From NCBI GenBank assembly GCA_964596545.1, contig CAZQUP010000005.1, positions 12,340 through 76,339 on the forward strand: 64,000 nucleotides of DNA. Reading direction: 5' to 3'. The stretch is from an uncultured Desulfatibacillum sp. (GTDB lineage Bacteria; Desulfobacterota; Desulfobacteria; Desulfobacterales; SpSt-501). A program made the translations under genes and the position numbers. The notes below the pieces were generated by a model that was not told the DNA's origin, ran no database searches, and saw only the letters and a list, made by a program, of their open reading frames with translations. Of the stretch, positions 35,316-63,406 are shown one piece after another (position 1 is the stretch's first letter; each line of letters begins with the position of its first letter).

Positions 35316-36677
<1,362 letters not shown>

Positions 36678-44530: not shown

Positions 44531-44540
44531 GACACGCTCC

Positions 44541-46236: not shown

Positions 46237-46380
46237 CGATGTCTCCTCCGGAAAGAATGACATTCATCGTCGCGAAACCGCACCGTCATTCCGGACGGGG
46301 TCCACGATCCTGAGGGAGTAGGAATTTCTGCCTGCCGTCCGACATCGAAACGACCCTGCGCGGACACGAGGAGATCCCTG

Positions 46381-46408
46381 AAAACAAAACCCCGACGCCA
46401 CCCCGGGA
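46381..46408 (-). terminator. Candidate intrinsic terminator after the small thioredoxin gene
   Basis: Minus-strand RNA CCCGG-ggugGCG-UCGGG (5 bp including one G-U pair) followed by GUUUUGUUUU. Lies in a 215-nt gap inside the redox gene run. Confidence 0.4.
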
Positions 46409-46451
46409 TGGACATCCTCCGGGAGGCGCCGGAGCGGTTTTCGCTTTCGGC

Positions 46452-46685
46452 TCAACGCTTGAGCCACTGCTTCACTTCTTCTTTGGTGGGGATCTTACCG
46501 ACGCATTTCACCTCTCCATCCACCACCACGGAAGGAGTGCCGAAGACGCCGTAGTCGGCGATTTTCAGCATGTCGGTCACCTTCTCGACCACGGCATCGA
46601 CGCCGACCTCCGCCACGGCTTCTTTGACGACGCGTTCGGTCTGCTGGCACTTGGGGCATCCGGGCCCCAGCACTTTGATGTTCAT
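46452..46685 (-). CDS. Thioredoxin-family small protein (redox-active disulfide protein 2 type)
   Basis: 77 aa. KVLGPGCPKC ... GVFGTPSVVVDG. Confidence 0.85.
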   Translation of the reverse strand: MNIKVLGPGCPKCQQTERVVKEAVAEVGVDAVVEKVTDMLKIADYGVFGTPSVVVDGEVKCVGKIPTKEEVKQWLKR

Positions 46686-46764
46686 GTTGCCGCATCTCCT
46701 TTCACCGTTCTTTCTGAAGAGTTACACAACTTCCCACCGACCGCAAGGCGTCCTGCTCTTGCCG

Positions 46765-47265
46765 TCATCCGCCGGCGGCCGCCCGGAGCCACTCTCGAAG
46801 CTGGTTGCGCGCGGGAACCCGGCCGACGGCGACCACCTTGCCGTTGATGACGAGAGCAGGGCTCCCCATCACCCCGTAACAGGCGATTTCCTGGATGTCA
46901 CGCACGTGCTCGAGGTCGGCGGGAAGCTTGAGTTCGGCGAGAACCGCCATAAGATCTTTCTCAAGGCGGTCGCATTGCGGGCAGCCGGGTCCCAGAACCT
47001 TGACCCTCAGCCCCCCCTCTTCTTTCTCGGGAAGCGGCTGTCCGATGAACTTGCGGTACTCCCGGTAAAGGGCCGCGCGGTAGGTTTCCCGGGCCGAGGG
47101 AACGACATAGTTCTTTTCGCTTACCCGGGCGAGCAGGGCTTCTTCGATGACGGCACGATCCCGGTCGGCGCAATCCCGCGCGACCTCTTCAAGAACGGAT
47201 TTCAGACCGATGATGCCGACGAGATGGTTGCCGATGCGAATCTGGGTGACGTCCGCGTTGCTCAT
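46765..47265 (-). CDS. Thioredoxin-like protein with N-terminal extension
   Basis: The C-terminal half repeats the GPGCPQC ... GSPALVINGK fold of the neighbouring gene. The N-terminal 80 aa are unassigned. Confidence 0.7.
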   Translation of the reverse strand: MSNADVTQIRIGNHLVGIIGLKSVLEEVARDCADRDRAVIEEALLARVSEKNYVVPSARETYRAALYREYRKFIGQPLPEKEEGGLRVKVLGPGCPQCDRLEKDLMAVLAELKLPADLEHVRDIQEIACYGVMGSPALVINGKVVAVGRVPARNQLREWLRAAAGG

Positions 47266-47289
47266 GGTTCCGCTTTCGTCCTTTCGGGA

Positions 47290-48684: not shown

Positions 48685-48788
48685 CGGGGATTTCCTCTTC
48701 TTCATGCTTCATGCGGAGGGGCGAAAAAAAATCCCTCCCGACGTCCCGCTCCTCTCTTGAAGGCGGGTTGGGCTATCGTAGGTCTTGG

Positions 48789-49172
48789 TTATGAGAAAGG
48801 AACGGATTGCCTTCCGGTGATGAGCTCTCTGCGGACAAGACGCGCGCGGGATACTTCCTCCCGGATCGCCGGATCTTCCTCCAACCAGGTGGAAAGCTCG
48901 CGCAACAGCTTGGCGGCGAAGGGGTTGGCGGAATCGCGGGAAAGCTCGTAGTTCACCCACAGCCCATCTTTCGAAGACACCACAAAACCCAATTCTTCCA
49001 ATAACTTAAGGTGTTTTGATACGGTCGGCTGCGAAATATGCAACAACGCCGTCAACTCGCAAACACATAGGCTCCGGCGATGTTGCAAGTATTTAAGGAT
49101 GCGCACCCTGCTGGGATCGGCCAGCGCTTTCATCGTTCTTGTGAGCAAATTCAAAGACGAAACGATATTCAT
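48789..49172 (-). CDS. arsR: ArsR/SmtB family repressor with SLCVCEL site, second copy
   Basis: LADPSRVRILKYL..SLCVCEL...QPTVSKHLKLLEELGFV. An alternative start at 49133 is possible. Confidence 0.8.
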   Translation of the reverse strand: MNIVSSLNLLTRTMKALADPSRVRILKYLQHRRSLCVCELTALLHISQPTVSKHLKLLEELGFVVSSKDGLWVNYELSRDSANPFAAKLLRELSTWLEEDPAIREEVSRARLVRRELITGRQSVPFS

Positions 49173-49304
49173 GTTCGGCAATATAGTAAGGTCCCCGTTG
49201 CCTGTCAAGGATGCTTTCTTGACCGCAAACAAAGCGAATGATAAAAGGAGCACCCATAGTGAACAGAGACTCTAAATCCTAAAAGGCATTCATCGATTTA
49301 GTTC

Positions 49305-50279
49305 ATGTTTTCTTTTTCCCCGCAGCGTTCGGTCCTGGGATTTTTCCTCAAGGCAGGATTTGCCGCCGTTGCGCTCGCCGCGTTTCTTAGCCTTCCGCTT
49401 GCCTGCGGGCCGGATGGGGAACACCGAGCGGTGGACTTTACCTCTCGGCCGGTTTCCTTACCGGTCTCCGCCAAGAACATCCCGCAGGAGGGGCGGCTTC
49501 GGGTCGCGGTGGCGGCGATGATCTCCCCGAAGGAAACCCTGATTCACTATAGGGAACTTCTCGAGTACCTGGGGCGGGAATCCGGCCAGACGATCAGCCT
49601 CCTGCAGCGTCGCACCTACGGCGAGGTGAACGATCTGTTCCCCCGCGGCGAAGTCGATCTCGCCTTCCTCTGCTCCGGCCCCTACGCCGTCGCCCGCGGA
49701 CGGATCGGTTTTCTCGCCATCGCCGTGCCGGTGGTAAGAGGGGAGCCGTTTTATCGAGCCTATCTGATTGTCCCCCGCCAAAGCCCGGCGACCGGAATTG
49801 AGGACCTGCAAGGCAAAGTCTTCGCCTTCACCGATCCCGAATCGAACACCGGGCACCTGGTGCCACGGTACTGGCTTGCCGCACGGGGAGAGCGGCCGGA
49901 GACGTTTTTTCGAAAGACCATCTTCACTTACAGTCACGACAACTCCATTCTCTCCGTCGTCCGCGGTCTCGTCGACGGCGCCGCCGTGGACGGTCACCAG
50001 TGGGAGTTTTTCGCCCGCAACCGGCCCGAGCTCACTTCCCCAGGGCGTATTCTTTTGCGCTCCGAGCCCTTCGGCAGCCCGCCGATCGTCGTCTCGCCGG
50101 CGTTGTCCGTCGCCCTCCGGACGAGGCTGCGGGAGATCCTCCTCTCCATGCACACCGATCCCGAAGGCCAGCGCATCCTCCAGGCGCTGGGGATCGACCG
50201 TTTCGTGGCTCCGGAGGAGTCTTGGTACGAGCCGATCCGGCGCATGTACGCGGTGTTGAACCTCGGCGGAGGATCCTGA
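49305..50279 (+). CDS. PhnD-like periplasmic substrate-binding protein (lipoprotein-type signal)
   Basis: LACG lipobox-like signal. PhnD/SBP_bac_3-like motifs ([16 protein letters not shown]). Confidence 0.7.
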
Positions 50280-50283
50280 CCCG

Positions 50284-52507
50284 ATGCGGCCTCTACCTCT
50301 CAAGACTACGCTCTGGGTGGCAACCGCCCTTCTCGTGCTGGTCTCCGGGGGGCTTATCTCGCTTCTCGCCGCACAACGCTACAGCCAAAGCCTGATGGAG
50401 GCGGCGACGGCCCAAGCGGAACAGGCCGCGCACAAGCTCTCCCTCGACGCCGCGGAACGGATCCTGATCCACGATCTCGTCGGCCTGCAGCGCCTGCTCG
50501 AGGACCAGATCGCCAGTCATCCCTCCGTTTCCTACATTTTCATCTTTCATGAGGGCGAGATCATCAGCCACACCTTTGCCGACGGGGTGCCCGCCGAGCT
50601 GATCGCGGCCAATGAAGCCGCCTCCTCCGAAGGCGCCAACCTGGTCCGTATCGCTTCCGAGCGCGGGGAGCGTTTTCTCGACGTCGCTTGGCCGATCTTC
50701 AGCGGCCGCGCGGGGACCCTGCGTATGGGGTTCTCCGAAGAGCCTCTGCGCCAAAAGGTGGCCGCCCTGAGGATGGAAATTTTCCTGATCACGGCGTTCA
50801 TCCTGGCTGGGGCCCTGGGCGCCGCCCAGCTGTTCGTCTATCGCCTGACCCGGCCTCTGCGGCGGCTTGCCGCCAGCGTGAGCCGGGCCATCGAGGACTC
50901 AGGCGCCGCCTCCGCCGCGGCGCGCCCACAGGAAGAGGTTTCCCGGCTGGAGGCCGCCTTCAGTGATCTGCTCCTGCGTCTCAAGGAGCATGCACAAAAG
51001 CTGGAGTCCTCCAACCGCGAGCTCGCCGAGCGACACCACCAACTGGATCGCGCTCATCGCCGGCTCGAGCTCGCGCTCTCCATCTCGCAAGAGCTCTCCT
51101 CGCGCGTGGAACTTTTCGAGGTCTGCCGGCATGTCCTCCGGGCCCTCAAGGAGGTCTCGATCTGCCCTCAGATCTCCCTTGCGCTCGTGGAGCCGGAAAC
51201 GGCGGAGGTCTTCCTGGTCACGAACACCGAAATCACGCGGCTCGAAGAAGAGGCCGCGGGCCCGATCCGTGCCGCCGTCCGTGAGGGCCGCGGCGTGCGC
51301 CACCTCGAGCAGGAGAAGATCGCGATCGGAAGGCTGCCTGCCGGCTGGGGGATGACCAAGCGACTGGCCCTGCTTCCCTTTCACCATCGCGAAGAGCCCC
51401 TGGGAGCGATGGCCGTTGGCTGCCCTGCCGATTGCTCCTGCGTCACCCGCGAGCTCGAACTGGTCGAGCTCATCCTGAACCAGGCCGCCGGTTCACTGCG
51501 TCGCGCCCTGGGCCACGAGCGGGCCTCACGCAACTTGCGGGCCCGCATCGAACCTTCCTCGGGTTTTTGCGGATTGATCGGCAATGATCCCCAAATGCTG
51601 TTGATCTACCGGCTGATTGAGGATGTGGCTCCGACGGATGCAACGATTCTGATCCAGGGGGAGAGCGGAACGGGAAAGGAACTCGTCGCGCGTGCGATCC
51701 ACGAGTCCAGCCTGCGCCGGGATAAGCCCTTTGTCGTCATCAACTGCTCGGCCTACCCGAGCACCCTGCTCGAAAGTGAACTCTTCGGTCACGAAAAAGG
51801 GGCTTTCACCGGAGCCACACGCCGCCGGACGGGGCTTCGAGCAGGCCCACGGCGGAACGGTCTTTCTCGACGAAATCGGTGAAATCCCGGCCTCGGCCCA
51901 GATCAAGCTGCTTCGCGTCCTGCAGAGCCAGAAGTTCGAACGCCTGGGCGGAGAGGAGACGCTCTCCGTGGATGTGCGCATCCTCGCCGCAACCAACCGC
52001 AACCTCGTGGAGGAGGTAAAAGCGGGTCGTTTTCGGGAAGACCTCTTCTACCGACTGAACGTGATCCCGATCCAGCTGCCGCCGCTGCGCGAACGAAGAA
52101 ACGACATCCCGCTGCTCGCCCTGCATTTTCTGCAACGCTTCGCCGGACGGCAACATAAGGAGATTTCCGGGTTTTCCCGGGAAGCGATGCGTCTGCTCCT
52201 CCACTACCGCTGGGTCGGCAACGTACGCGAGGTGGAAAACACGATCGAGCACGCCGCCGTGCTCGCCAAGGGCCGGCGAGTGGAGGTGACCGACCTTCCG
52301 CCTTCGCTCCTCACGGATCCCAAAAAGTCGACCGCCGATCCGGCCACCGGGAAAACGATCATGGGCAATGAAGCCCGCCTCCTGCGGGAGGTCCTTCAAG
52401 AATGCAATTGGAACAAGACCGAAGCGGCCCAGCGGCTGGGAATCAGCCGCAGCACGCTCTACGAGAAGATAAAAAGATACGGCATCCTTCCCCACACCCT
52501 GCACTGA
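50284..52507 (+). pseudogene. Membrane-anchored GAF-type sigma-54 activator, frameshifted in the AAA+ domain near 51831-51835
   Basis: Frame 1 carries TM[44 protein letters not shown] and then runs into nonsense with a stop at 51882. Frame 2 resumes exactly with [15 protein letters not shown] and continues to the Fis HTH. Confidence 0.75.
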
Positions 52508-52785: not shown

Positions 52786-52800
52786 TGGCACCGCTCTTGC
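52786..52800 (+). promoter_or_regulatory. Sigma-54 promoter upstream of the receiver-like gene and the TtrBCA-like operon
   Basis: TGGCAC-cgctc-TTGC with canonical spacing, about 42 nt before ATG 52841. Confidence 0.75.
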
Positions 52801-52840: not shown

Positions 52841-53245
52841 GTGATGCTGGACAACGTCATTTTTATGATCAACGACAGCCACGAAGAACGCTCCCTGATC
52901 GCGGCGATCTTCGATGAGATGAACATCCGGCTGCGCCCTGCGGATTCGGTAGCCGCTCTCGCCGCAGCGGCCCGGGAAGAAATGCCCACCGCCCTGATCG
53001 TGGACATCGACGAGCTCTCCATGACCAATCGGGTGATCCGCGAAATCGCCACCGGTTTTCCCCGCCTACCGGTCTTGGGCATCTCCTCGCAGCGGTTCCA
53101 CCCGGATCTCGCCGAATCGATCCGCGATTGCATCTATGCCTGTCTCCACCGGCCGCTGGACCCGGATGAACTGCGCTATTGGCTTAAAAGCATCCTCAAG
53201 GACGGACCTCCCCCGGAGGACGCCCCCCCCCTGACGGCGGCTTGA
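52841..53245 (+). CDS. Stand-alone receiver-like domain protein (atypical)
   Basis: CheY-like fold with ALIVDIDEL Asp. The conserved KP Lys position reads RP. First gene after a sigma-54 promoter. Confidence 0.5.
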   Translation: MMLDNVIFMINDSHEERSLIAAIFDEMNIRLRPADSVAALAAAAREEMPTALIVDIDELSMTNRVIREIATGFPRLPVLGISSQRFHPDLAESIRDCIYACLHRPLDPDELRYWLKSILKDGPPPEDAPPLTAA

Positions 53246-53320
53246 AGCAACGGGCGCGGGGAAGCGAAGAATCCTGCGCGCCGAAAAATAACGGAGGATC
53301 TCCCGCAACGAGGAGGGAAC

Positions 53321-54073
53321 ATGAGCAGATTTCTGGCAGTGGAAGACCAGCTCGTTCGCATGCAGCGCGATCTGAAACGCGCGCTCGCCGCGGATCCCAA
53401 ATCCGTGCGCTGGGGGATGGTGATCGATCTGGCTAAGTGCATCGGTTGTCATGCCTGCACGGTCGCCTGCGTGGCCGAAAACAAGCTGCCCCCCGGCGTC
53501 GTCTACCGACCGGTGCTCGAGGAGGAGGCGGGCACTTACCCCGCGGTGCGCCGGCGCTTTGTCCCCCGTCCGTGCTTGCAATGTCAGAACCCGCCCTGCA
53601 CCAAGGTCTGCCCCGTCACGGCAACATACAAAAACGAAGCCGGCGTCGTGGTCGTCAATTACAACCGCTGCATCGGCTGCCGCTACTGCCTCGTCGCCTG
53701 CCCCTACAGCGCCCGCACCTCCGATTTCGGCGACTGGTATACCCGCGAAACCCCCGAGGGGCAGGGCATACTGCAGGGAAGGTACACGGCGGCCGCGGGC
53801 TACGAGACGGAGGCGGCCGCGGAATACGGTAAAAAATGGCCGCCGCGGGGCAAGGGCTCCCCCATCGGCAACGCCCGCAAATGCCATTTTTGCCTGCATC
53901 GTGTAGCCGTCGGCATGCTGCCCGCCTGCGTGACCACCTGCATCGGGCGGGCGACCATCTTCGGCAACCGCAACGACCCCGAAAGCCTCGTCTTTGAGCA
54001 GATCGGCTCGGCCCGCGCCTTCCAGCTCAAGGCCGAACTGGGAACCCAGCCCGCGGTGTACTATCTCGCATAA
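53321..54073 (+). CDS. 4Fe-4S ferredoxin-type subunit of a Psr/Ttr/Nrf-type molybdoenzyme (TtrB/PsrB-like)
   Basis: Four Cys clusters ([27 protein letters not shown]). Confidence 0.85.
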
Positions 54074-54087
54074 GGGAAGGAGGAGGC

Positions 54088-55338
54088 ATGCATTATCGAT
54101 TTTTTCCCCTGCTGAGCATCGTTGCCGTCGCCGGCCTGGCGGTCGGCAGCTACGGGATGGTCGACCGGCTATGGAACGGCCTCAACCCCGTGGCCTTCGG
54201 AAGCTACGTGCCGTGGGGCCTGTGGGTGGCCTTCTACCTCTTCTTCCTCGGCCTCTCCGCCGGCGCCTTTCTGGTGACGATCCTGACCTATTTGCTCGAA
54301 ATCAAGCCGTTTGAAGGAATCGGCCCGCTCTCGGCTTTCATGGTGCTGGTCTGCCTTTTCTGCGAAATGCTCTTCATCCTGCTCGACCTCGGCACCATGC
54401 ACCGCGCCTTCTACCAATTCTTTCTCACGCCGAGCTTCAGCTCGCTGCTGACGTGGATGTTCGTCCTCTTCAACCTGATGGGGTTGATCTACACCCTGAA
54501 GACCTACTTTCTCGTACGCGGCGACATCATCCGCAAAGCGCAAGGCACGAAGGGCCCGCTGGGGGCGCTCTATCGGCTGCTTTCGTTCGGTCGCAGGGAG
54601 TACGATGCCGCAATGCATGCCGCGGATGACCGAAGGGTGCATCGGCTCGCCTGGATCAGCCTGCCGGTGGGAATGCTCTTTTACGCCACCAACGGCGCCT
54701 TCTTTGCCATCCTGATCAACCGCCCGATCTGGAACAGCGCCCTCACGCCGCTTCTCTTCGTCGTCGCCGCGCTGCTGAGCGGCGGCGCTTTGGTCGCCTT
54801 TCTCACCTACATGTACATCGACAACGCCGCCGGGCTGCGTGACACGCTGATGCGCTACCTCGGCCGCTCGATCCTCTTTCTGCTCTGCCTGTTTCTCGTG
54901 CTCGAGGCGATGCAGTTCTTCGTCGGCTATCAGACCGGACGCACCGACATCGTCACCAGCCTGAACCACATCACCCTGGGCCGGGGCTGGTGGATCTTCT
55001 GGGTCGTGCATCTCGGCCTGGGAAGCCTGATCCCGCTCGTGCTGCTCGTCTTCGGGGGGGGAAACCCGCGCTCGACCGCCTGGGCCTGCTTTCTCATTTT
55101 CGCCACTTTCATCGCCGTGCGCTACAACTTCGTCATCCCGGATCTCGCCGTCTACAAGCTGGAGGGGCTGGAGTACGTCTTCCGCCACCCCCGGCTGTCG
55201 ACCGAGTACGTGCCCAACCTGAACGAGTGGCTTGTCAGCCTGTGGATCATCTCCGCCGGGCTCCTCGCCTTCTTGCTGGGGACCCGCTATTTGCCGATCG
55301 TCCATCCACACCCGAGAGGAGTCGACCATGCCGCGTAA
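54088..55338 (+). CDS. NrfD/PsrC/TtrC-family integral membrane quinol-interacting subunit
   Basis: About 10 TM helices. GSYVPWGLWVAFYLFFLGLSAG opening typical of the NrfD family. Confidence 0.85.
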   Translation: MHYRFFPLLSIVAVAGLAVGSYGMVDRLWNGLNPVAFGSYVPWGLWVAFYLFFLGLSAGAFLVTILTYLLEIKPFEGIGPLSAFMVLVCLFCEMLFILLDLGTMHRAFYQFFLTPSFSSLLTWMFVLFNLMGLIYTLKTYFLVRGDIIRKAQGTKGPLGALYRLLSFGRREYDAAMHAADDRRVHRLAWISLPVGMLFYATNGAFFAILINRPIWNSALTPLLFVVAALLSGGALVAFLTYMYIDNAAGLRDTLMRYLGRSILFLLCLFLVLEAMQFFVGYQTGRTDIVTSLNHITLGRGWWIFWVVHLGLGSLIPLVLLVFGGGNPRSTAWACFLIFATFIAVRYNFVIPDLAVYKLEGLEYVFRHPRLSTEYVPNLNEWLVSLWIISAGLLAFLLGTRYLPIVHPHPRGVDHAA

Positions 55339-58300
55339 AGTCCAATCCCCCGTGAACCCGGATCTGGAAAAGGCTGCGGGTTTGAACCGCCGGGATTTCT
55401 TGAAGACGAGCGCCCTGCTCGGTGGGACCATGCTGCTCGCCGGCTCCACGCCACCTGCCTGGTCCCGGGGGGACGCCGCCGCCGAAGCCTCCGGCGCCTA
55501 TGTCCACCATCGGCCCGAAAACCAGATTCTCTCCGCCTGCCAGCAGTGCAACACCAACTGCGGGATGAAGGTCAAGCTGGTGGACGGCAAGGTGGCGAAG
55601 ATCGACGGCAACCCCTACAACCCTTGGTGCATGACGCCCCAGATCGCCGAAGAGACGCCCCTCGCCCAGGCGGCGACCATCGAGGGCTCGCTCTGCCCCA
55701 AGGGGCAGGCCGGCATCCAGACGCTCTATGACCCCTACCGCATCGTCCAAGTGCTCAAGCGCGCCGGAAAACGGGGGGAAAACAAATGGAAAACGATCCC
55801 CTTCGACCAGGCCGTGCAGGAAATCGTCAACGGCGGCGATCTCTTCGGCGAAGGTCCGGTGGAGGGGCTCAAGGACATCGTCGTGCTGCGCGATCCCAAG
55901 ATCGCCAAAGCCCTGGCCGATGACGCCGCCTTGGTCGCGGCGAAGAAGATGTCCATCGAGGAGTTCAAGGAGAAGCACGCCGAGAATCTTCACGTGCTGA
56001 TCGACCCCAACCACCCGGATCTGGGACCGAAAAACAACCAGTTCTGCCTGAATTGGGGTCGTCTGAAAAACGGCCGGGCCGATCTTCTCCGGGATTTCTT
56101 CGCCCGCTCCTGCGGCTCGGTCAATTACCACGGGCACACGACGGTCTGTCAGGGATCGCTCTACTTCGCCGGCAAGGCGATGAGCGACCAGTTCGTCGAA
56201 GGAAAATTCACCGGCGGAAGCAAATTCTACTGGCAGGCGGACACGGGGAACGCCGAGTTCTGCATCTTCGTCGGCGCCAATCCCTTCGAGGCGAACTACG
56301 GGCCGCCGCTTCGCGCCCAGAAGGTCACCGAAGGCACCGTCGACGGCCGCATGAAAATCGCGGTCATCGATCCGCGCTGTTCGAAAACCGCCGCCCGGGC
56401 CTGGAAATGGCTGCCGGTCGAACCGGTGAACGGAGTCCCGGCGATCGCCATGGCCATGATCCGCTGGATCATCGAGAACCGGCGCTTCGACGCCGCTTAT
56501 CTCGCCAACGCGAACAAGGCGGCGGCCCGGGCCGACGGCGAGCCGACCTGGTCGCAGGCCGCCTGGCTGGTGAAAATCGGAGATGACGGCAAACCCGGAA
56601 AATTCCTACGGGCCTCCGATCTCGGGCGCTCGACCGAGAAACGCACCCGCAAAGACGGATCCACCTGGGAATTCGATGCCTTTCTCGTCAAGTCCGGCGA
56701 CGAGATGATCGCTTTCGACCCCAACGACGAGAAACACGCCGTCGAGGGCGAGCTTCTCGTGGACACGGAGGCAAACGGCATCCGGGCGAAAAGCGTGCTG
56801 CAGATCATTTTCGAGGCGGCGCAAGCCAAAAGCTTCGAGGCCTGGTGTGAAACGGCCGGGGTGCGCGCAGTTGACGTCATCGACATCGTCAAGGAATTCG
56901 TCAGCCACGGCAAGAAGGCCGTGGCCGACCTGCACCGCGGCGTCTCCCAGCACACGAGCGGCTTTTACAACGTCGCCGCCTGGTATACGGTCAACGCCTT
57001 GATCGGCAACACGGGCTGGCAGGGCGGGCTGTGCAAGGCCACGACCTGGAATCACGTCGGCAACCGCCCGGGCAAACCTTTCGATACGACCAAGCGCTTC
57101 GCCGGCAACATCCGCGCCTGGGGCGTGAACATCATCCGCCACAGCGCGGTCTACGACAAGAGCACCCTCTTTCAAGGGTTTCCGGCCAAGCGGCCCTGGT
57201 ATCCCTTCTCTTCCGACATCTACCAGGAGGTCATCCCCAGCATCGGCGATCAGTATCCTTATCCGATCAAGGCTCTTTTGCTCTACATGGGCTCGCCGGT
57301 CTACGCCCTCCCCGCGGGACACACGCTGATCGAAATCTTAAAAGATACCCGAAAACTCCCCCTATTCATCGCCTCCGATATCGTGATCGGCGAAACCACG
57401 ATGTACGCCGACTATATTTTCCCGGACACGACCTACCTCGAGCGTTGGGAATTCCCCGGGGCCCACCCCTCGGTCGCTCCCAAGGTCTTTCCCATTCGGC
57501 AGCCGGCCGTAGCGCCACTCGTCGAAACCGTGAAGGTTTTCGGCGAAGAGATGCCGATGAATCTGGAGGCGCTGATTCTGGCCCTGGCGGAGAAGCTGAA
57601 ACTCCCGGGCTACGGCGAAAACGCCTTGGGGGCGGGGCTGCACCTCAAGCGGGAGGAGGATCTCTACCTGCGCATGGTCGCCAACGTGGCCTGGGGCGAC
57701 AAGGAGGACGGCTCGGAGCGCGTGCCGGCGGCGGACGCCGAGGAGATGCGCATCTTCCTGGAAGCCCGTCGCCACCTGCCGCAGACCGTCTTCGACCCCG
57801 AACGCTGGAAAAAGGTGGTGGGCGAAGATCTCTGGCCCCATGTCGTCTGGGTCCTCAACCGCGGCGGCCGGTTCCAGAGCTACGTCAAGGCTTACAAAGA
57901 CGGGCGCCTCGTGAACGCCTACGACAAGATGATCGGGCTCTACTTCGAAAACCTCGCCACGACGAAGCACGCCATGACCGGAAAGCCCTATCATCCCTAT
58001 CCGGACTTCGTCCCCGGGCCTTCGGACTGCACGGGAAACCTCCTCCGCGACCGCGAGGCGGGATACGACATGACCCTCATCACTTACAAATACATCACCC
58101 AGACCAAAACCCGCACCGTGGGGAACTACTGGCTGAACGCGGTCTATCCCGAAAACTACGTCGAGATCTCGGCGGCCGACGCCCGCCGCCTGAGTCTCAA
58201 GTACGGCGACCGGGTGCGGATCGTCTCCGCCACCAATGAAGACGGCGTCTGGGATCTCGGAAACGGCACCCGTCTTCCCATCGCCGGCAAAGTCAAGGTC

Positions 58301-58540
58301 CTCCAGGGACTCCGGCCGGGGGTGGCCGCCTTCTCGCTCGGCCACGGTCACTGGGCGCAAGGGGCTATCGCCTTCGAAATCGACGGCAAGACCTTCCGTC
58401 GGGACGAACGCCGATTCCGCGGCTTGCATGCCAACGCCGCCATGCGGGTCGACCCGGTGCTCGGCAACACGACCCTCGGGGACATGGTGGGGGGAAGCGC
58501 GGTGTTCTATCAGAGTCAGGTGAAGATCGTCCGCGCCTGA
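55328..58540 (+). CDS. Tat-exported bis-MGD molybdo/tungstopterin oxidoreductase catalytic subunit (Ttr/Psr/Arr clade), about 1070 aa
   Basis: RRDFLK Tat motif, FS0 motif C-x2-C-x3-C...C, and a candidate Mo-ligand Cys in HGHTTVCQGS. Start at ATG 55328. Confidence 0.85.
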   Translation: MPRKVQSPVNPDLEKAAGLNRRDFLKTSALLGGTMLLAGSTPPAWSRGDAAAEASGAYVHHRPENQILSACQQCNTNCGMKVKLVDGKVAKIDGNPYNPWCMTPQIAEETPLAQAATIEGSLCPKGQAGIQTLYDPYRIVQVLKRAGKRGENKWKTIPFDQAVQEIVNGGDLFGEGPVEGLKDIVVLRDPKIAKALADDAALVAAKKMSIEEFKEKHAENLHVLIDPNHPDLGPKNNQFCLNWGRLKNGRADLLRDFFARSCGSVNYHGHTTVCQGSLYFAGKAMSDQFVEGKFTGGSKFYWQADTGNAEFCIFVGANPFEANYGPPLRAQKVTEGTVDGRMKIAVIDPRCSKTAARAWKWLPVEPVNGVPAIAMAMIRWIIENRRFDAAYLANANKAAARADGEPTWSQAAWLVKIGDDGKPGKFLRASDLGRSTEKRTRKDGSTWEFDAFLVKSGDEMIAFDPNDEKHAVEGELLVDTEANGIRAKSVLQIIFEAAQAKSFEAWCETAGVRAVDVIDIVKEFVSHGKKAVADLHRGVSQHTSGFYNVAAWYTVNALIGNTGWQGGLCKATTWNHVGNRPGKPFDTTKRFAGNIRAWGVNIIRHSAVYDKSTLFQGFPAKRPWYPFSSDIYQEVIPSIGDQYPYPIKALLLYMGSPVYALPAGHTLIEILKDTRKLPLFIASDIVIGETTMYADYIFPDTTYLERWEFPGAHPSVAPKVFPIRQPAVAPLVETVKVFGEEMPMNLEALILALAEKLKLPGYGENALGAGLHLKREEDLYLRMVANVAWGDKEDGSERVPAADAEEMRIFLEARRHLPQTVFDPERWKKVVGEDLWPHVVWVLNRGGRFQSYVKAYKDGRLVNAYDKMIGLYFENLATTKHAMTGKPYHPYPDFVPGPSDCTGNLLRDREAGYDMTLITYKYITQTKTRTVGNYWLNAVYPENYVEISAADARRLSLKYGDRVRIVSATNEDGVWDLGNGTRLPIAGKVKVLQGLRPGVAAFSLGHGHWAQGAIAFEIDGKTFRRDERRFRGLHANAAMRVDPVLGNTTLGDMVGGSAVFYQSQVKIVRA

Positions 58541-58566
58541 ACCCGAAAAGCCACGGAGAACGAGCC

Positions 58567-59277
58567 ATGAAGCCTTTTGCGGAACTGCTTCGGCAATCCG
58601 CCGCCGCCCATGGGCACCTGTGCCCGGGGCAGGTGGTGGGCGTGCGCATGGCGATGCTCGGCTGCCGGCTGATCGGACTTGACGAGCCGACGCGCCGCGA
58701 GCAGATCAAGAAACTGATCGTCTTCGTGGAAATGGACCGTTGCACGGCCGACGCCGTCGCCCACGTGACCGGGGCGAAGCTCGGTCGCCGCAGCCTGAAG
58801 TTCGTCAACTACGGCATCATGGCCGCTTCCTTTCTCAACCTGGAGACCGGCAAGGCCGTGCGTGTGCTCTCCACCGAAGAGGCGCGCGATCTCGCCGCGG
58901 TTTACGCCCCGGAGATCTGCGGCCGGTCGCGGCAACAGCTCGTCGGGTACTGCCGCATGCCGGACAGTGTCCTCTTCCGGGTCCAGGAGGTGCGCATTCC
59001 CTTGAGGCCGGTCGATCTGCCCGGCCCGAGCCGCAGCAAGGTCGACTGCGACCGCTGCGGGCAGATCGTGCGCGACGGCCGCGAAGTCCGCCGCAAGGGG
59101 ATGACCCTCTGCCGCCCCTGCGCCGAGGGGGCTTACTTCACTCACGCACGCGAGATCTGTTGGCCGCAGATGAACTGGACTCCCGAAGAGCCGCCCGGCC
59201 TGGATGCGCCGCACGACCCGACGGAGGCCCGCTCGAGCGCGGAACAGCCGCCCGCCGAAGTGATTGTGCTGCGCTGA
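58567..59277 (+). CDS. FmdE-family protein with C-terminal zinc ribbon
   Basis: HGHLCPGQVVGVRM and VEMDRCTADAV motifs, plus CDRCG...CRPC. Confidence 0.75.
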   Translation: MKPFAELLRQSAAAHGHLCPGQVVGVRMAMLGCRLIGLDEPTRREQIKKLIVFVEMDRCTADAVAHVTGAKLGRRSLKFVNYGIMAASFLNLETGKAVRVLSTEEARDLAAVYAPEICGRSRQQLVGYCRMPDSVLFRVQEVRIPLRPVDLPGPSRSKVDCDRCGQIVRDGREVRRKGMTLCRPCAEGAYFTHAREICWPQMNWTPEEPPGLDAPHDPTEARSSAEQPPAEVIVLR

Positions 59278-59343
59278 AGGGCGGAGCTTGCCGCAAGAGG
59301 ACGTTCACCTTACCTTCTGCCTTGGATACATGGACGGGATGCG

Positions 59344-60375
59344 ATGATGAAGAAAATCCGCCTGCAGGACGCCGTGGGGACCCGGCTCGCCCACGACATC
59401 ACCGAAATCCGCCCCGGAGAGTTCAAGGGACCCGCCTTCCGCAAGGGCCATACCGTCTGCGCGGAGGATCTCTGCCGCCTCCAGAAACTGGGCAAGAACC
59501 ACCTTTACGTGCTCGAGGTGGGCGAAGACGAGATCCACGAAAACGAGGCCGCGGCCATGCTCGCCGCGGCCCTTGCCGGCCCGGGAACCGCGTGGGAAAA
59601 CGATCCGCGGGAGGGCAAGATCGCAATCCGCGCCGCCGGCGACGGGCTGCTCTACGTCAATGCGGCGGCGCTCGCCGCCTTCAACCTCGTCGAGGAGGTG
59701 ATGTGCGCGACCCTCCACACCCACAGCCTCGTAGCCGCCGGCAAAATCGTGGCCGCCACACGGGCGATCCCCCTCGTCATGAAGCGTGCGGCGATCGAAC
59801 GCGCCGCGGCGATCGCGCGCCAGGAGGGCGGGGTGGTCCAGGTCCGGCCGCTTCGGCGGGCGAAGGCGGGCGTGGTGATCACGGGAAGCGAAGTCTATCA
59901 CGGCCTGATTCAAGACCGCTTCGCCCCCATCCTCACGGAGAAGATCCAGGCCTTGGGGGGCGAGGCGGCCTCCGTGCGCTTTGCGCCCGACGACACCGGC
60001 CTCATCCGCCGGGCGATCACCGATCTGCTCGCCGAGGGCTGTGACCTGCTTTTGCTCTCCGGCGGCATGAGCGTCGACCCCGACGATGTGACGCGTCTGG
60101 CCATCCGCGAGGCCGGCGCCCAGGAAATCCACTACGGCGCCGCCGCCCTGCCGGGGGCCATGTTTCTCGTGGCCTGGATCGGCGACATCCCGCTCCTGGG
60201 GGTGCCCGCCTGCGGCCTGTATCACCGCATCACGGTCCTGGATCTCATCCTGCCGCGCATTCTCGCCGGCGAACGCATCGGGAAAAAGGAACTCGCCTTC
60301 CTCGGTCACGGGGGGCTGTGCCAGGACTGCAAGCCCTGCGTCTTCCCTCACTGCGCGTTCGGCAAGGGGGCCTGA
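59344..60375 (+). CDS. Molybdopterin-binding (MoCF-biosynthesis domain) protein
   Basis: VVITGSEV ... LLLLSGGMSVDPDD MoaB/MogA-like core with a Cys-rich C-terminus. Confidence 0.7.
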   Translation: MMKKIRLQDAVGTRLAHDITEIRPGEFKGPAFRKGHTVCAEDLCRLQKLGKNHLYVLEVGEDEIHENEAAAMLAAALAGPGTAWENDPREGKIAIRAAGDGLLYVNAAALAAFNLVEEVMCATLHTHSLVAAGKIVAATRAIPLVMKRAAIERAAAIARQEGGVVQVRPLRRAKAGVVITGSEVYHGLIQDRFAPILTEKIQALGGEAASVRFAPDDTGLIRRAITDLLAEGCDLLLLSGGMSVDPDDVTRLAIREAGAQEIHYGAAALPGAMFLVAWIGDIPLLGVPACGLYHRITVLDLILPRILAGERIGKKELAFLGHGGLCQDCKPCVFPHCAFGKGA

Positions 60376-60408
60376 TTCCTCGACCGTCCAGGAAGGAGCA
60401 AAATCCCG

Positions 60409-60963
60409 ATGACGCTTCCGCAAGGCCCCCCGATCCGCTTGGGGGCGTTGGATCCCCGATTCTCACGCGAGATCAAGAAACTGGCGGGCACCGATTTCCA
60501 CGCCTGCCTGCAGTGCCGCAGCTGCAGCGGGGGCTGCCCCTTCAGCGATCACATGGACTACATGCCGAACGGCGTCATGCGCCTCGTGCAGCTCGGCCTC
60601 AAGCAGGAGGCGCTCTCCTGCAACACGATCTGGATCTGTGTGGGCTGCCACACCTGCTCGATCCAGTGCCCCATGGCGATCGACATCCCCGGCGTCATGG
60701 ACGCCTTGCGGGAAAAGGCGCTTGCCGAAAACATCGAGGCGATCGAGCCCGACATTCTCGCTTTCCACCGTGAGGTGCTGAACTCGATCGCCCGGCACGG
60801 ACGCACCCACAAGCTGGAAATCATGTTGCGCTACAAGCTGAAAAAACGCGATCTCTTCAGCGACCTCGACGTGGGCCTGCGCATGCTCGCCAAGCGCAAA
60901 CTCGATCTCGCCCCCTCGCGCATCTCGGACCTCGAGGCGATCGAAAAGGTGTTTCGCTCATGA
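60409..60963 (+). CDS. Heterodisulfide reductase subunit C-like 4Fe-4S protein
   Basis: CLQCRSCSGGCP and CVGCHTCSIQCP motifs. Confidence 0.8.
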   Translation: MTLPQGPPIRLGALDPRFSREIKKLAGTDFHACLQCRSCSGGCPFSDHMDYMPNGVMRLVQLGLKQEALSCNTIWICVGCHTCSIQCPMAIDIPGVMDALREKALAENIEAIEPDILAFHREVLNSIARHGRTHKLEIMLRYKLKKRDLFSDLDVGLRMLAKRKLDLAPSRISDLEAIEKVFRS

Positions 60964-61823
60964 CCGCCGCTCACCGCTCCGCGCCGATCGAGGTCTCCTA
61001 TTTCCCGGGGTGTTCGCTCGCCACCACGGCGAAGGAGAACAACCAGTCGCTGATCGAATCCTGCGCCCGTCTGGGAATCCGGTTGATCGAAATTCCGGAC
61101 TGGAATTGCTGCGGCAGCTCTTCGGCCCACAGCGTAAGCCACCGTCTGGCCTTCGATCTCGCCTGCCGCAACCTCGCGCTCGCGTCCCCGGGGCGGCCGC
61201 TGATCACAGCCTGCCCGAGCTGCACCTTGCGGCTGAAGCATGCCCAGCACCTCCTGCGACACGACCCCGAAGCCCGCAGGCGCTACGAATCGCTCTGGGG
61301 GCGCCCCTACGACCCGGATCTGCACATCCGGCATTTCTTCGGTCTTCTGGTGGAGATCGACTGGCGCACCCGCATCGGAAACGGCGAAGTCGCCGCCCTC
61401 GACCTCACCTTCGCCCCCTATTACGGGTGCATGCTCAACCGGCCGGCGCCCCTGAGACCGAGTACGGACCACCATGGGATCATGGAGCGGGTACTCGGCG
61501 ACCTCGGGATGCGTTCCGTGCTGTGGGCTTCTTCGACCCAGTGCTGCGGGACGTTTCTCACCGTCGCCCGGCCGGATATCGTCACCCCCAAGGTAAACGC
61601 GATCCTGCAGAACGCGGCCGACAGCGGAGCCGAGTGCCTGGTCACCGCCTGCGCCATGTGCCACATGAATCTCGAGGTACGCTGCACGCTGAAAGCACCC
61701 ATCCCGATCTTTCACTTCTCGGAGCTGATCGCGCTGGCCTTCGGCTCCGCCCGGCGCGACTGGTTTTCGCGCCACCTCATCGACCCGCGGCCGCTGTTGC
61801 GGCGCAAGGGGCTCGCCGATTAA
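60960..61823 (+). CDS. Heterodisulfide reductase subunit B-like protein (two CCG domains)
   Basis: FPGCS...NCCGSS and YYGCM...CCGTF...CAMCHMN. ATGA overlap with the hdrC-like gene. Confidence 0.8.
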   Translation: MTAAHRSAPIEVSYFPGCSLATTAKENNQSLIESCARLGIRLIEIPDWNCCGSSSAHSVSHRLAFDLACRNLALASPGRPLITACPSCTLRLKHAQHLLRHDPEARRRYESLWGRPYDPDLHIRHFFGLLVEIDWRTRIGNGEVAALDLTFAPYYGCMLNRPAPLRPSTDHHGIMERVLGDLGMRSVLWASSTQCCGTFLTVARPDIVTPKVNAILQNAADSGAECLVTACAMCHMNLEVRCTLKAPIPIFHFSELIALAFGSARRDWFSRHLIDPRPLLRRKGLAD

Positions 61824-61891: not shown

Positions 61892-62071
61892 TCAACCCCC
61901 GCGGGGGTTTGCCGTCTCACAGCGGCAGGCCCCCAGGCGTTTGGCGGCGACAATCTCCTCAAGAATCCGCGAACGACCGTGTTTTCGAAAATCCGCCGCG
62001 ATCCCGCTCCGCGTGTACCCGAAGCAGAAGCAGATCGTCTCCTCTTCCGACGGCTTGTCTTCATCGATCAT
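61892..62071 (-). CDS. Small BFD-like (2Fe-2S)-binding-domain protein (59 aa)
   Basis: ICFCFGYT ... GACRCETANP cysteine pattern. Overlaps the moeA stop by 11 nt. Confidence 0.45.
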   Translation of the reverse strand: MIDEDKPSEEETICFCFGYTRSGIAADFRKHGRSRILEEIVAAKRLGACRCETANPRGG

Positions 62072-63293
62072 GAGAATCCGGCACCTCCAAGAGTACCGCC
62101 CACACGATTTCCCCTGCGGCGGCCCCCGCCCGTTCTTCCGGCAGCACGAGAAGCCCCTGTTTGTCGGCCAGCGAACGCAACACGCTCGCCCCACCATGGA
62201 GGGGAAAGGCCAAGGGCGTTTCCTCCCCGGCAGCGAGACGCACGGGAACAAAGCGCGTCCAGCCGCGCTCTCCGCCCACGGCCTCGACGAGCCGCACCCG
62301 GATGCGGGGAAACGCAGGCAGGCGATCGCCCCGCATCCGGAGCAGCGCCGGAAGGGCGAGCGCGAGGAAAGCCGTCTCGTTGGCCGAAGGACCGCCCGGC
62401 AGGAGAAAAAGCGGCTTGCCCCCGATCAGGCCGAAGCCGACCGGTTTTCCCGGGCTCATCCGCACGCGGTGATACACCCCTTCCATCCCCAGCTCGAGTG
62501 CGGCCCTCCAGGTCAGATCCCTTTCGCTCCCCCAGGCGCCGCCGCAGGTGATCAACGCGTCGCAGTGGGAAAGCGCCCGCTCCAGTGCGTCGGCGATCGC
62601 CGCGCGGCGGTCGGGGACGACTTCGCCCCGGGAGGGAAAGCCGAAGCGGGAAAGCCAGCCCGAGATCTGCACGAGGTTGCTGGCGTACAGTTTGCCTTCC
62701 GCAAGCGGCTCCCCGGGAAGCGCGAGCTCGTTTCCGGCGGCGAGGACGGCCACGCGGGGATTGCCCACGACCGGCACCCACGCGTGGCCGGAAGCGGCGA
62801 TCAGGCCGAGAAGCGCCGGTGACAGCCGCACGCCCGTGCCGGCGATCCGCTCTCCGGCACGGACATCGGCGCCGCGGGGCAGGACGTTCCGACCCGGCTC
62901 GGCGGTGTTGCGACACAGGACCGATCCGCCCTCGAGCACGGCATACTCCTCGGAGAGAACCGCATCGGCCCCTTCCGGTAGCGGGGCCCCCGTGGTGACC
63001 CGGTGCGCCTGGCCCCGTTGGATACGCCCGCCGTGTGGGTCCCCCGCCTCCGAACGGCCGGTCAGAGGCAATCGGACCGGTTTTTCCGGAGAGGCGTGTT
63101 GCAGATCCTCGGAGAAAACCGCATAGCCGTCCCGGCGCGAGGTCGCCTGGAGCGGGCAGTCCACGCGGGCACGAATTTCTCCGGCCAGGCTGCGGCCGAT
63201 CGCCGCGGCCAGGGGCCGTTCCTCCGCCGGCAGCGGGGACACCCGGGCGAGCGTCAGGGCGAGTGCTTCGCGAAACCCGATGGCCGTGTCCAT
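62061..63293 (-). CDS. moeA: Molybdopterin molybdotransferase
   Basis: SRRDGYAV, TGAPLPEGADAV, and CGGAWGSERDLT in the MoCF domain. ATG at 63293 (MDTAIGF). Confidence 0.85.
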   Translation of the reverse strand: MDTAIGFREALALTLARVSPLPAEERPLAAAIGRSLAGEIRARVDCPLQATSRRDGYAVFSEDLQHASPEKPVRLPLTGRSEAGDPHGGRIQRGQAHRVTTGAPLPEGADAVLSEEYAVLEGGSVLCRNTAEPGRNVLPRGADVRAGERIAGTGVRLSPALLGLIAASGHAWVPVVGNPRVAVLAAGNELALPGEPLAEGKLYASNLVQISGWLSRFGFPSRGEVVPDRRAAIADALERALSHCDALITCGGAWGSERDLTWRAALELGMEGVYHRVRMSPGKPVGFGLIGGKPLFLLPGGPSANETAFLALALPALLRMRGDRLPAFPRIRVRLVEAVGGERGWTRFVPVRLAAGEETPLAFPLHGGASVLRSLADKQGLLVLPEERAGAAAGEIVWAVLLEVPDSHDR

Positions 63294-63406
63294 GAAGACC
63301 CCTCTCGAGCAGGTTCGGGAGGCAGCCCGGTTGCAGATCCCGGTGAGGTTACGATAGGATCTTTCTATCACGGATTCCAATCTGCGCCCAAGGAGGAAAC
63401 CGAATC

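Follow-up and report, generated by a model that had tools for sequence, protein, structure and literature searches.

The window analysed here, a 64,000-nucleotide (nt) stretch of an uncultured Desulfatibacillum sp. (contig CAZQUP010000005.1, assembly GCA_964596545.1; G+C ∼64%), carries at 52841–61823 an operon of eight co-directional open reading frames (ORFs), in which genes for a receiver-like protein and for the B, C and A subunits of a tetrathionate reductase (Ttr)-like molybdoenzyme are followed by those for an FmdE-family protein, a MoCF-domain protein, and two proteins resembling the heterodisulfide reductase (Hdr) subunits HdrC and HdrB. Positions are those of the window unless another locus is named; its nearest relatives are uncultured Desulfobacterales, with a catalytic subunit 97% identical in locus L001. 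Domains were assigned from Pfam and NCBIfam model scores judged against curated cut-offs, structural relatives from Protein Data Bank (PDB) matches, and gene context from homologous loci (L-numbers), 80 of which are related loci anchored on the catalytic-subunit gene. An earlier, sequence-only reading had listed the eight genes with their domains, and all were found where it had placed them, with Pfam and NCBIfam in agreement; five neighbouring genes or elements had escaped it, namely a sigma-54 promoter, upstream genes for an ArrX-like binding protein and a sigma-54 activator, and downstream genes for a small CxC protein and MoeA.

Intergenic distances within the operon range from −14 to 75 bp. 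The hdrC-like gene begins 33 bp after the MoCF gene with its own Shine–Dalgarno sequence (AGGAAGGAG), and overlaps the hdrB-like gene by 4 bp. Terminator-like sites within the operon are not enriched (10 found, 8.7 expected from shuffled sequence), a scan for intrinsic terminators and sigma-70 promoters gave nothing exceeding shuffle expectation, and a perfect palindrome (AACCCCCGCGGGGGTT, 61894–61909) lies 3′ of hdrB. The hdrCB pair is probably co-transcribed with the enzyme genes in the window.

The first operon gene (52841–53245, plus strand) encodes a receiver-like protein rightly called atypical in the sequence-only reading, with a Response_reg score of 24.2 bits below the cut-off of 30.2 and HRP in place of the usual K-P; it is kept at the same position in 21–22 of the 80 related loci. 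Subunit B (53321–54073, plus strand) is a four-cluster ferredoxin (Fer4_11) with 161–178 bits on the DsrO, ArrB and TtrB models, all sub-cut-off, and subunit C (54088–55338, plus strand) is an NrfD-type quinol-interacting membrane anchor (NrfD 114 bits; ∼10 hydrophobic segments); their genes are present in 69 and 62 of the related loci, respectively. Subunit A (55325–58540, plus strand) is the catalytic subunit, binding a bis(molybdopterin guanine dinucleotide) (bisMGD) cofactor and exported by the twin-arginine translocation (Tat) pathway (Pfam Molybdop_Fe4S4, Molybdopterin and Molydop_binding). Its likely start is the ATG at 55325, giving a protein that begins MPRKV...NRRDFLK, the mechanically called ORF opening instead at a TTG at 55232. 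With 1071 aa, a Tat motif NRRDFLK (RR at 55388–55393) and Cys275 (56147–56149) as ligand, the export, the size of ∼1070 aa and the Cys ligand in HGHTTVCQGS foreseen from the bare sequence are borne out; the Tat motif, the FS0 cysteines C72/C75/C79/C124 and HGHTTVC275QGS are invariant across 18 family members.

The B-C-A gene order and the resemblance to Ttr likewise hold, TtrA being the best NCBIfam model of A, and the locus has all the marks of a Ttr/Srd-type three-subunit enzyme: B-C-A order, Tat export of A, FS0 cysteines, a Cys ligand, a four-cluster B subunit and an NrfD-type C subunit. That order is general in the superclade, occurring also in Halobellus, Azospirillum, Pseudomonas and Citrobacter plasmid loci. 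On the TtrA model (NF011567) A scores 482 bits against a cut-off of 1750, and family members 459–513, whereas a plasmid-borne enterobacterial TtrA used as a control scores 2075 bits; A is 30% identical to the enterobacterial TtrA. Scores on the ArrA model NF041714 (104 bits, cut-off 1600) and the PhsA model (182 bits, cut-off 694) are also low, the former indicating that A is not a canonical ArrA, and the closest solved structures are Thermus PsrA (107 bits) and Shewanella ArrA (PDB accession: 6cz7; 76 bits, in four fragments). Homologues of A form at least 3277 clusters (90% identity) at E 1e-10 or better among 8000 scored candidates, the best 120 clusters being at least 65% identical to A, and the family has 573 confirmed matches among species-representative genomes, distributed over Desulfobacterota, Chloroflexota, NC10/Rokubacteria, Acidobacteriota, Bipolaricaulia, Kryptonia, Armatimonadota and Bacillota. 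Cultured relatives are among its carriers, the catalytic subunit of Desulfomicrobium apsheronum, for example, being 76% identical. A neighbour-joining tree built from 102 sequences, made up of 83 representatives at 50% clustering, members of the family itself and five reference enzymes encoded on plasmids (the PSR-1, OR-1, Pyrobaculum, Melioribacter and SrdA enzymes discussed below lie outside this sampling), groups the A family with the representatives P0241 and P0242 in one clade (bootstrap 99/100) and places true TtrA, comprising the Salmonella type and the Pseudomonas and Azospirillum plasmid enzymes, in another major clade. Among the enzymes placed in this tree, A does not cluster with any of proven substrate, consistent with the earlier expectation. 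P0241, the closest to A of the 50%-cluster representatives, is a single protein of 1470 aa (Gaiellaceae and metagenomes) that matches A over its residues 403–1459; one member of its cluster is named a dehydrogenase plus HybB-like membrane subunit, and NCBI labels another an NrfD/PsrC anchor, which would make this an apparent C-A fusion in Actinobacteria.

A Gly-Arg motif (56057–56062) separates A further from tetrathionate reductases. G245-R246 of A aligns with G164-R165 of Shewanella ArrA, and H271 and C275 with H189 and the Mo ligand C193, the position of ArrA Y166 being Leu in A. The motif is invariant in the A family, whereas members of the true TtrA clade are gapped or differ at those columns, in keeping with its strict conservation in Arr, Arx and Ttr-like arsenate reductases and its absence from true Ttr, for which it has been proposed as a distinguishing mark (PMC12949373). 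The active-site signature of A is HGHTTVCQGSLYF, most other Gly-Arg-bearing Ttr-like clades having EHT(S/T)ICE(Q/L)SHH. Given the sub-cut-off model score, the 30% identity, the separate clade and the Gly-Arg motif, A is, on its sequence characters, a member of the Ttr/Srd superclade and not a true TtrA.

Upstream of the operon lies a gene for an ArrX-like periplasmic binding protein of the PhnD fold with an N-terminal signal or anchor (49305–50279, plus strand; Pfam Phosphonate-bd 222 bits). The best PDB match is ArrX of Chrysiogenes arsenatis (PDB accession: 6x6b; E 1.7e-57, 198 bits), compared with 170 bits for AioX and 50–64 bits for the phosphite and phosphonate binders HtxB, PtxB and PhnD. 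Relative to the pocket set defined for AioX, ArxX and ArrX (Tyr88, Cys106, Tyr131, Ser161, Ser163, His192 and Asp210; PMC5908839), six of the seven residues are identical (Tyr, Cys, Tyr, Ser, His, Asp), with Thr at the position of Ser163; the equivalent of Cys106 is present here and lacking in PhnD, and the loop MISPKETL resembles MISPLETM of ArrX, a short polar MISPxET type unlike the AioX loop. In vitro, ArrX bound arsenate and phosphate, with no binding of selenate, antimonite, tetrathionate or thiosulfate, antimonate not being listed (PMC5908839). An ArrX-like gene occurs in 27 of the 50 related loci that have at least 6.5 kb of upstream sequence.

The next gene (50284–52507, plus strand) encodes a membrane sigma-54 activator with sCache_3_2, GAF, AAA+ and HTH domains (Pfam), broken by a 2-bp deletion near 51833 into ORFs 50284–51882 and 51692–52507 in different frames, such that the Sigma54_activat match ends at position 88 of 168. 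Relatives carry it intact (742 aa in L001; 738–751 aa in L002, L017 and L040), the alignment showing the 2-bp gap, and the gene is present in ∼25 related loci. An exact −24/−12 sigma-54 promoter element (TGGCACCGCTCTTGC, 52786–52800, plus strand) is located 41 nt before the first operon gene, one of three exact elements in the window; in 9 of 60 related loci, sites with at most one mismatch lie 450–770 bp before gene B (background 0.046 per kb). No histidine kinase and response regulator of the TtrS/TtrR type was found beside the operon among the upstream genes annotated with Pfam. The two other exact elements (29124–29138, minus strand; 29405–29419, plus strand) face outward from one intergenic region, the former towards an unannotated ORF (28160–29101, minus strand) and the latter towards a hydrophobic, membrane-protein-like ORF (29432–30379), with a response-regulator-type sigma-54 activator gene (35049–36677, plus strand) 5 kb from the pair.

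Two sets of arsenic genes are found in the window. A divergent ars-type cluster (43814–49253, minus strand; Pfam assignments) includes genes for ArsR (48789–49253), an ArsP permease (47290–48705), two Thioredoxin_3 proteins, a DGC protein and a DsbD_TM protein, with an ORF lacking assignment on the plus strand within it (44502–45629), and its genes recur near the enzyme in 4–10 related loci each, as well as in L082. The second island (15875–22355, mixed strands) comprises ArsM (15875–16705, plus strand), ArsP (17847–18953, minus strand), ArsR (20709–21260, minus strand) and Acr3 (21261–22355, minus strand), ArsM and Acr3 exceeding their curated cut-offs (NF008823, 346 bits, cut-off 263; TIGR00832, 452 bits, cut-off 283). 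Within 10 kb of the enzyme, Acr3 is encoded in eight related loci and ArsM in six, and at least one of the ArrX-like, Acr3, ArsM and ArsP genes is near the enzyme in 39 of the 80. The sister clade shows a comparable arrangement in Deferrisoma camini, in the order ArsC, Acr3, ArsD, ArsA, methyltransferase, ArrX-like protein, histidine kinase, sigma-54 regulator, B, A. A homologue search with P0244, a high-GC representative of that clade, recovered Calditrichaeota, Deferrisoma, Bacteroidota, Chloroflexi and Brocadiales, and neither Anaeromyxobacter nor Geobacter.

The genes appended 3′ of A encode proteins of a different character. The FmdE-family protein (58567–59277, plus strand; FmdE 99 bits, zf-dskA_traR) is cytoplasmic, with a C-terminal C4 zinc ribbon, and PDB entry 2gvi is its sole solved relative. 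The MoCF protein (59344–60375, plus strand; MoCF_biosynth 73.5 bits) is a shortened MoeA-like protein with a Cys-rich tail (CQDCKPCVFPHC), its best PDB match being MoeA (1uz5) over residues 169–335; to the MoeA encoded in the window it is weakly similar, in domain III and at the N-terminus. Genes for both follow A in 24 of the 80 related loci, almost all in Desulfobacterota, and in 12 loci a MoaA-like radical S-adenosylmethionine gene is found 3′ of the MoCF gene. The HdrC-like protein (60409–60963, plus strand; Fer4_17, Fer4_8) has two CX2CX2CX3CP [4Fe-4S] motifs (residues 33 and 77) and the HdrB-like protein (60960–61823, plus strand; CCG 77 bits) two complete CCG motifs (residues 18–88 and 157–234), the complement of an HdrBC core, neither protein having a membrane segment. 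The match of the HdrB-like protein to methanogen HdrB (5odc_B; E 1.6e-23) extends along its full length, the protein scoring 89 bits on the HdrB model against a cut-off of 345, and HdrC-like scores 67.5 bits on TIGR03290 against a cut-off of 160. Neither an electron-input partner (HdrA, HdrE, QmoAB or DsrM) was found among the eight operon genes or their immediate neighbours, nor a haem-b membrane subunit of the DsrM, QmoC or HdrE type in the operon, where NrfD is the sole membrane subunit. Convergent with the operon lie genes for a 59-aa CxC...CxC protein (61892–62071, minus strand), identified by minus-strand translation and absent from ORF lists, and for the molybdopterin molybdotransferase MoeA (62061–63380, minus strand; MoeA_N, MoCF_biosynth and MoeA_C), the start of the former overlapping the stop of moeA. 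The CxC protein scores 39.5 bits on CopZ_Nterm_CC (cut-off 100), a weak likeness to the Fe-S-binding N-terminus of CopZ-type metallochaperones.

Conservation of the hdrCB pair depends on how the loci are chosen. Among the 50 A-anchored loci with at least 3.5 kb of downstream sequence, hdrCB follows the enzyme genes in two (L001 and L002) and is absent from that position in the other 48, so that the synteny expected by the sequence-only reading fails at the level of the enzyme family. The conclusion from the 80 A-anchored loci that hdrCB is simply not conserved was nevertheless revised, since an HdrB-anchored search shows real linkage in a shallow clade. Seven loci with 65–72% HdrB identity, chosen for the length of their contigs and independently of gene context, carry hdrCB 3′ of FmdE and MoeA-like genes in four cases (L081, L082, L083 and L096) and the convergent CxC gene with MoeA after hdrCB in four (L081, L083, L094 and L096); in the latter four, the CxC homologues are 53–55 aa and lie between hdrB and moeA, and a convergent moeA after hdrB is seen in L001 as well. 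Counting the near-identical L001, close HdrB homologues (at least 65%) occur in eight further loci, seven of which have FmdE and MoeA-like genes upstream and/or the CxC gene and MoeA downstream, the eighth (L095) having a weak MoeA_C fragment only. In L083, three genes separate hdrC from the MoeA-like gene, their products being a double-HdrC-like ferredoxin, a FabK/NMO-like protein and an O-acetylhomoserine sulfhydrylase. The Ttr-like enzyme of L096 (1–10412) is another one, of 935 aa, with 36% identity to A and accompanied by a NarJ/TorD-type chaperone; after it comes a block of FmdE (73% identity), MoeA-like protein (81%), a ferredoxin, HdrC (77%), HdrB (71%), the CxC protein and MoeA (52%). 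Thus hdrCB is not a conserved part of the enzyme, and its linkage recurs in a shallow clade and is not that of a chance neighbour.

HdrB homologues at 56–60% identity belong to orphan HdrC-HdrB pairs in contexts unrelated to the enzyme. One such pair, in L084 (4348–12175), has cysteine desulfurase-like, MOSC and cysteine synthase-type genes 1.3–3.5 kb upstream, and thioredoxin and GcvH genes downstream; among pairs at 57–59% identity, CinA, which has a MoCF-type domain, abuts the pair on the P0229 contig and lies one gene away in L086 (8417–11619). These contexts give hints of a wider link of the HdrCB subfamily to sulfur or MoCF-domain proteins. HdrCB-like matches at 24–25% identity in L010 were judged to be a different pair, lying 3.4 kb 3′ of A and consisting of a 601-aa protein (weak NarI-like and Fer4 matches) and then a CCG protein.

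The three-subunit architecture, Tat export, cofactor-binding motifs, sigma-54 promoter, ArrX-like sensor and gene linkages are evident from the sequence, and suggest an interpretation that we favour slightly when it is taken as a whole: BCA would be a quinol-dependent, periplasmic, Ttr-like arsenate reductase, and the 3′ genes would form a cofactor-maturation module. The substrate had been described as impossible to read from sequence; with a sensor closest to ArrX, a sigma-54 activator and promoter, the Gly-Arg motif, and arsenic genes at about half of the related loci, arsenate is now the probable physiological substrate. In the proposed mechanism, arsenate in the periplasm would bind the ArrX-like protein, which would signal to the membrane Cache-GAF sigma-54 activator to open the promoter at 52786–52800. 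The NrfD subunit (C) would oxidise menaquinol and pass electrons through the four-cluster ferredoxin (B) to A, where As(V) would be reduced to As(III) in the periplasm at a Cys-ligated Mo-bisMGD centre, the As(III) product being dealt with by the neighbouring Acr3, ArsM and ArsP. FmdE, the MoeA-like protein, HdrC, HdrB, the CxC protein and MoeA may mature the cofactor, and the 3′ operon genes would be co-induced with the enzyme.

The assignment of the 3′ genes draws on gene neighbourhood. FmdE, the MoCF protein and the adjacent MoeA are read as cofactor-maturation accessories, and the occurrence of HdrCB within an FmdE/MoeA-like/MoeA block, even behind a different enzyme in L096, points to a portable, cytoplasmic, MoeA-centred module as its place, and not to the respiratory electron path. 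Whether the 3′ genes FmdE, MoeA-like and HdrCB, with the CxC protein and MoeA, do constitute a maturation module we consider evenly balanced; that HdrCB performs thiol, disulfide or persulfide redox chemistry in the sulfur or metal handling of the cofactor is a guess. The fuller proposal, in which the six proteins make up a portable and undescribed redox-dependent maturation module for the Mo/W cofactor of periplasmic Ttr-like enzymes, HdrCB supplying the thiol, disulfide or persulfide chemistry, is advanced tentatively and with considerable doubt. Literature searches found no paper in which a Ttr-type enzyme is accompanied by an Hdr or FmdE module, and none joining tetrathionate reductase, FmdE and molybdopterin, or heterodisulfide reductase, tetrathionate reductase, arsenate and FmdE.

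Several observations weigh against the combined interpretation. The Gly-Arg motif is present in 71 of the 102 aligned sequences of the tree, and hence rules out true Ttr only and is no proof of arsenate. The frameshift near 51833 may mark a real pseudogene, in which case the operon may be silent, or an assembly error, and 23 of the 50 loci with enough upstream sequence have no ArrX-like gene. In L033 and L037, hdrCB lies upstream of the enzyme locus, in L033 beside a sulfide:quinone reductase gene, and we know of no Hdr-type protein in molybdenum cofactor synthesis. FmdE is itself without known function, and is missing from the solved formylmethanofuran dehydrogenase complex (PMC11237513). From the pocket residues of AioX, ArxX and ArrX one cannot tell whether arsenite or arsenate is the ligand (PMC5908839), and the likeness to the Ttr-like arsenate reductases of PSR-1, OR-1, Pyrobaculum (PAE1265), Melioribacter and Limisphaera, introduced below, rests on descriptions of those enzymes and not on their sequences.

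Other substrates fit the locus less well. Automatic annotation would make A a reductase of a sulfur compound (tetrathionate, thiosulfate or polysulfide), drawing on TtrA as its best NCBIfam model and on the label ‘tetrathionate reductase subunit A’ that JGI gives to many relatives, and the host clade is one of sulfate-reducer-like Desulfobacterales, with a rhodanese gene and thiol-disulfide genes in the window; yet the TtrA score is far sub-cut-off, A lies outside the true TtrA clade and bears the Gly-Arg motif missing there, the PhsA score is likewise sub-cut-off, and the adjoining sensor is ArrX-like, with no TtrS/TtrR pair beside the operon and no binding of tetrathionate or thiosulfate by ArrX itself (PMC5908839), making a sulfur substrate very unlikely. 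Reduction of another oxyanion, such as antimonate, or selenate as in SrdBCA, is also unlikely, if slightly less so: SrdA belongs to the lineage of TtrA, SrdA and alternative arsenate reductases and shares the B-C-A order (PMC7331816, PMC10100899), and the substrate range of the TtrA/SrdA lineage is plastic, but the neighbouring genes are arsenic-specific, with Acr3 and ArsM above curated cut-offs, and ArrX, the closest match of the sensor, bound neither selenate nor antimonite (PMC5908839). A similarly small probability attaches to the enzyme running in reverse, as an Arx-like anaerobic arsenite oxidase delivering electrons into the quinone pool. The resemblance of the sensor to the arsenite sensor AioX, together with a pocket that does not discriminate (PMC5908839), would permit this, but the sensor scores higher on ArrX and has the ArrX-type MISPxET loop, no terminal oxidase, nitrate reductase or photosystem gene is annotated in the examined parts of the window, and the relatives belong to anaerobic lineages that reduce sulfate or iron.

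For HdrCB, the sequence-only reading had proposed a coupling akin to DsrMKJOP or Qmo, in which the pair forms complex subunits that, with NrfD and the ferredoxin, connect periplasmic reduction to cytoplasmic thiol/disulfide chemistry. The operon linkage on which it built stands in part, hdrCB being probably co-transcribed here, with no terminator ahead of hdrC, and the linkage recurring in L001, L002, L081, L082 and L083; the pair is also complete in its CCG and [4Fe-4S] motifs, and the best NCBIfam match of the HdrB-like protein is SdhE, a quinone-interacting peripheral membrane anchor (109 bits, cut-off 500). The status of core enzyme subunit does not stand. The pair follows the enzyme genes in two of 50 loci, is separated from them by three unrelated genes in L083, sits behind a different enzyme in L096, and has orphan homologues at 56–60% identity in settings unconnected with the enzyme. 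NrfD subunits are without redox cofactor (PMC8076601), and with no haem-b subunit in the operon electrons would reach a cytoplasmic Hdr via the quinone pool only; direct coupling is accordingly judged highly improbable. An independent cytoplasmic disulfide reductase, serving general thiol or arsenic-stress housekeeping and placed here only because one Desulfobacterales lineage has inherited this gene order, is doubtful but retains an appreciable minority chance. In its favour are the orphan homologues beside cysteine desulfurase, cysteine synthase, thioredoxin and GcvH genes, the flavoprotein disulfide-reductase-like genes flanking the pair in L033 and L095, and the abundance of thioredoxin-type genes in the window. 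It accords poorly with the block of FmdE, MoeA-like, HdrC, HdrB and MoeA next to a different enzyme in L096, where FmdE, MoeA-like, HdrC and HdrB are kept at 71–81% identity, and with the pair remaining beside MoeA in L083 despite the genes inserted upstream. Context thus largely answers the substrate question in favour of arsenate and makes the coupling hypothesis unlikely, and the shared maturation-type block is a real, unexplained pattern.

Two clades of Ttr-like arsenate reductase have been described. TtrA homologues of Anaeromyxobacter sp. PSR-1 (WP_059435911.1) and Geobacter sp. OR-1 (WP_041969781.1) have been implicated in As(V) respiration (as cited in PMC11462812), as have the Ttr homologue PAE1265 of Pyrobaculum aerophilum (cited in PMC12949373), the MROS_1076 locus of Melioribacter roseus, where an ArrT/ArrX-type gene and ars genes precede the ttr genes (PMC5492636), and a Limisphaera Ttr homologue (PMC13608581). 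With these the window enzyme shares the large TtrA-like subunit, Cys ligand, Tat export, Gly-Arg motif and accompanying ars genes, and with Melioribacter also an upstream sensor gene of the phosphonate-binding ArrT/ArrX type (PMC5492636). It differs in pairing its sensor with a membrane sigma-54 activator of the one-component kind plus a receiver-like protein, and not with a histidine kinase and response regulator, as well as in the appended FmdE, MoeA-like and HdrCB genes and the signature HGHTTVCQGSLYF. Compared with TtrBCA-TtrSR of Salmonella and Shewanella, the B-C-A order, NrfD anchor, three subunits and size of the catalytic subunit (∼1020–1070 aa) are alike, whereas identity (30%), score on the TtrA model (482 against 2075 bits), clade, and presence of Gly-Arg set the enzymes apart, and an ArrX-like protein with a sigma-54 activator takes the place of TtrSR. 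The regulatory systems have a further point of likeness, the sensing domain of TtrS having, as the sensor of the window does, a PhnD fold.

The ArrAB(C)/ArrXSR system of Chrysiogenes arsenatis has in common with the window a sensor of the ArrX type and, in its arrXSR module, control of the sigma-54 type (PMC5908839), and in Shewanella ArrA (6cz7) the Gly-Arg, His and Cys ligand align with those of A; canonical ArrA is nonetheless distinct in model score (104 bits for A against a cut-off of 1600), in the Leu replacing Y166, in gene order, and in length, A being ∼220 residues longer (1071 aa against an 848-position model). SrdBCA, the selenate reductase of Bacillus selenatarsenatis, is of the same lineage and has the B-C-A order (PMC7331816), a comparison made by description, but the context in the window is arsenic-specific. 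DsrMKJOP, QmoABC and HdrDE resemble the locus in a CCG-domain protein, an NrfD-type subunit and a periplasmic ferredoxin; unlike those complexes, the locus has neither a haem-b subunit (DsrM, QmoC or HdrE) nor an HdrA/QmoAB flavoprotein, and its HdrC and HdrB are separate soluble proteins that most of the enzyme family's loci lack. Methanogen HdrABC (5odc) is similar in the full-length HdrB match, both non-cubane cluster motifs, and the two [4Fe-4S] motifs of HdrC, but differs in that the proteins of the window score sub-cut-off (89 against 345 bits; 67.5 against 160 bits) and have no HdrA or MvhD partner.

The core of the locus is therefore most likely, on its sequence and context, a further member of an already proposed type, the Ttr-like arsenate reductase with an ArrX-type sensor, and the known mechanism of the enzyme class is unchanged by these findings. 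Its variant features are the one-component sigma-54 activator and receiver-like protein replacing ArrS/ArrR, the signature HGHTTVCQGSLYF, and the appended FmdE, MoeA-like and HdrCB genes. A major part in arsenic release in anoxic soils and aquifers is increasingly ascribed to Ttr-like arsenate reductases, though these are poorly defined; transcripts of ttrA were more numerous than those of arrA in paddy soils from Japan (PMC11462812). The combination of ArrX-like sensor, sigma-54 control and ars genes could serve in metagenomes to tell true tetrathionate reductase genes from ‘ttrA’ genes for arsenate reduction, and the spread of the A family includes hot-spring phyla besides Desulfobacterota, Chloroflexota, NC10 and Acidobacteriota. 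The block of FmdE, MoeA-like, HdrCB and MoeA common to different Ttr-like enzymes offers a testable lead on FmdE and may indicate a redox step in cofactor maturation; if true, the maturation module would be the first role in cofactor assembly for FmdE and for an Hdr-type protein.

Further features were observed around the arsenic genes. Between ArsP and ArsR-Acr3 of the second island, a 552-aa GlpC/HdrD-like CCG protein is encoded (19019–20677, minus strand), a second, independent CCG protein in an arsenic setting, whose homologues in L019, L031 and L080 are encoded no more than 10 kb from the enzyme. Just ahead of ArsM, and overlapping its start, lies a small MazE/AbrB-like gene (together 15597–16705, plus strand), and this pair adjoins the enzyme in L009, L014 and L017. 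On the opposite strand, ∼0.5 kb from ArsM, genes for a Rieske protein, a cytochrome b and two EB_dh proteins (ethylbenzene-dehydrogenase gamma-like, haem-binding) form a cluster (11653–15409, minus strand) that looks like an unusual Rieske/cytochrome b complex. In the Citrobacter arsenatis LY-1 conjugative IncFII plasmid NZ_CP037863.1 (L087, 28794–38085), arsRDABC is divergent from a B-C-A Ttr-like enzyme, the catalytic subunit of which (1008 aa; 663 bits on the TtrA model) is more distant from A and has the Gly-Arg motif, making this a candidate plasmid-borne locus for arsenate respiration.

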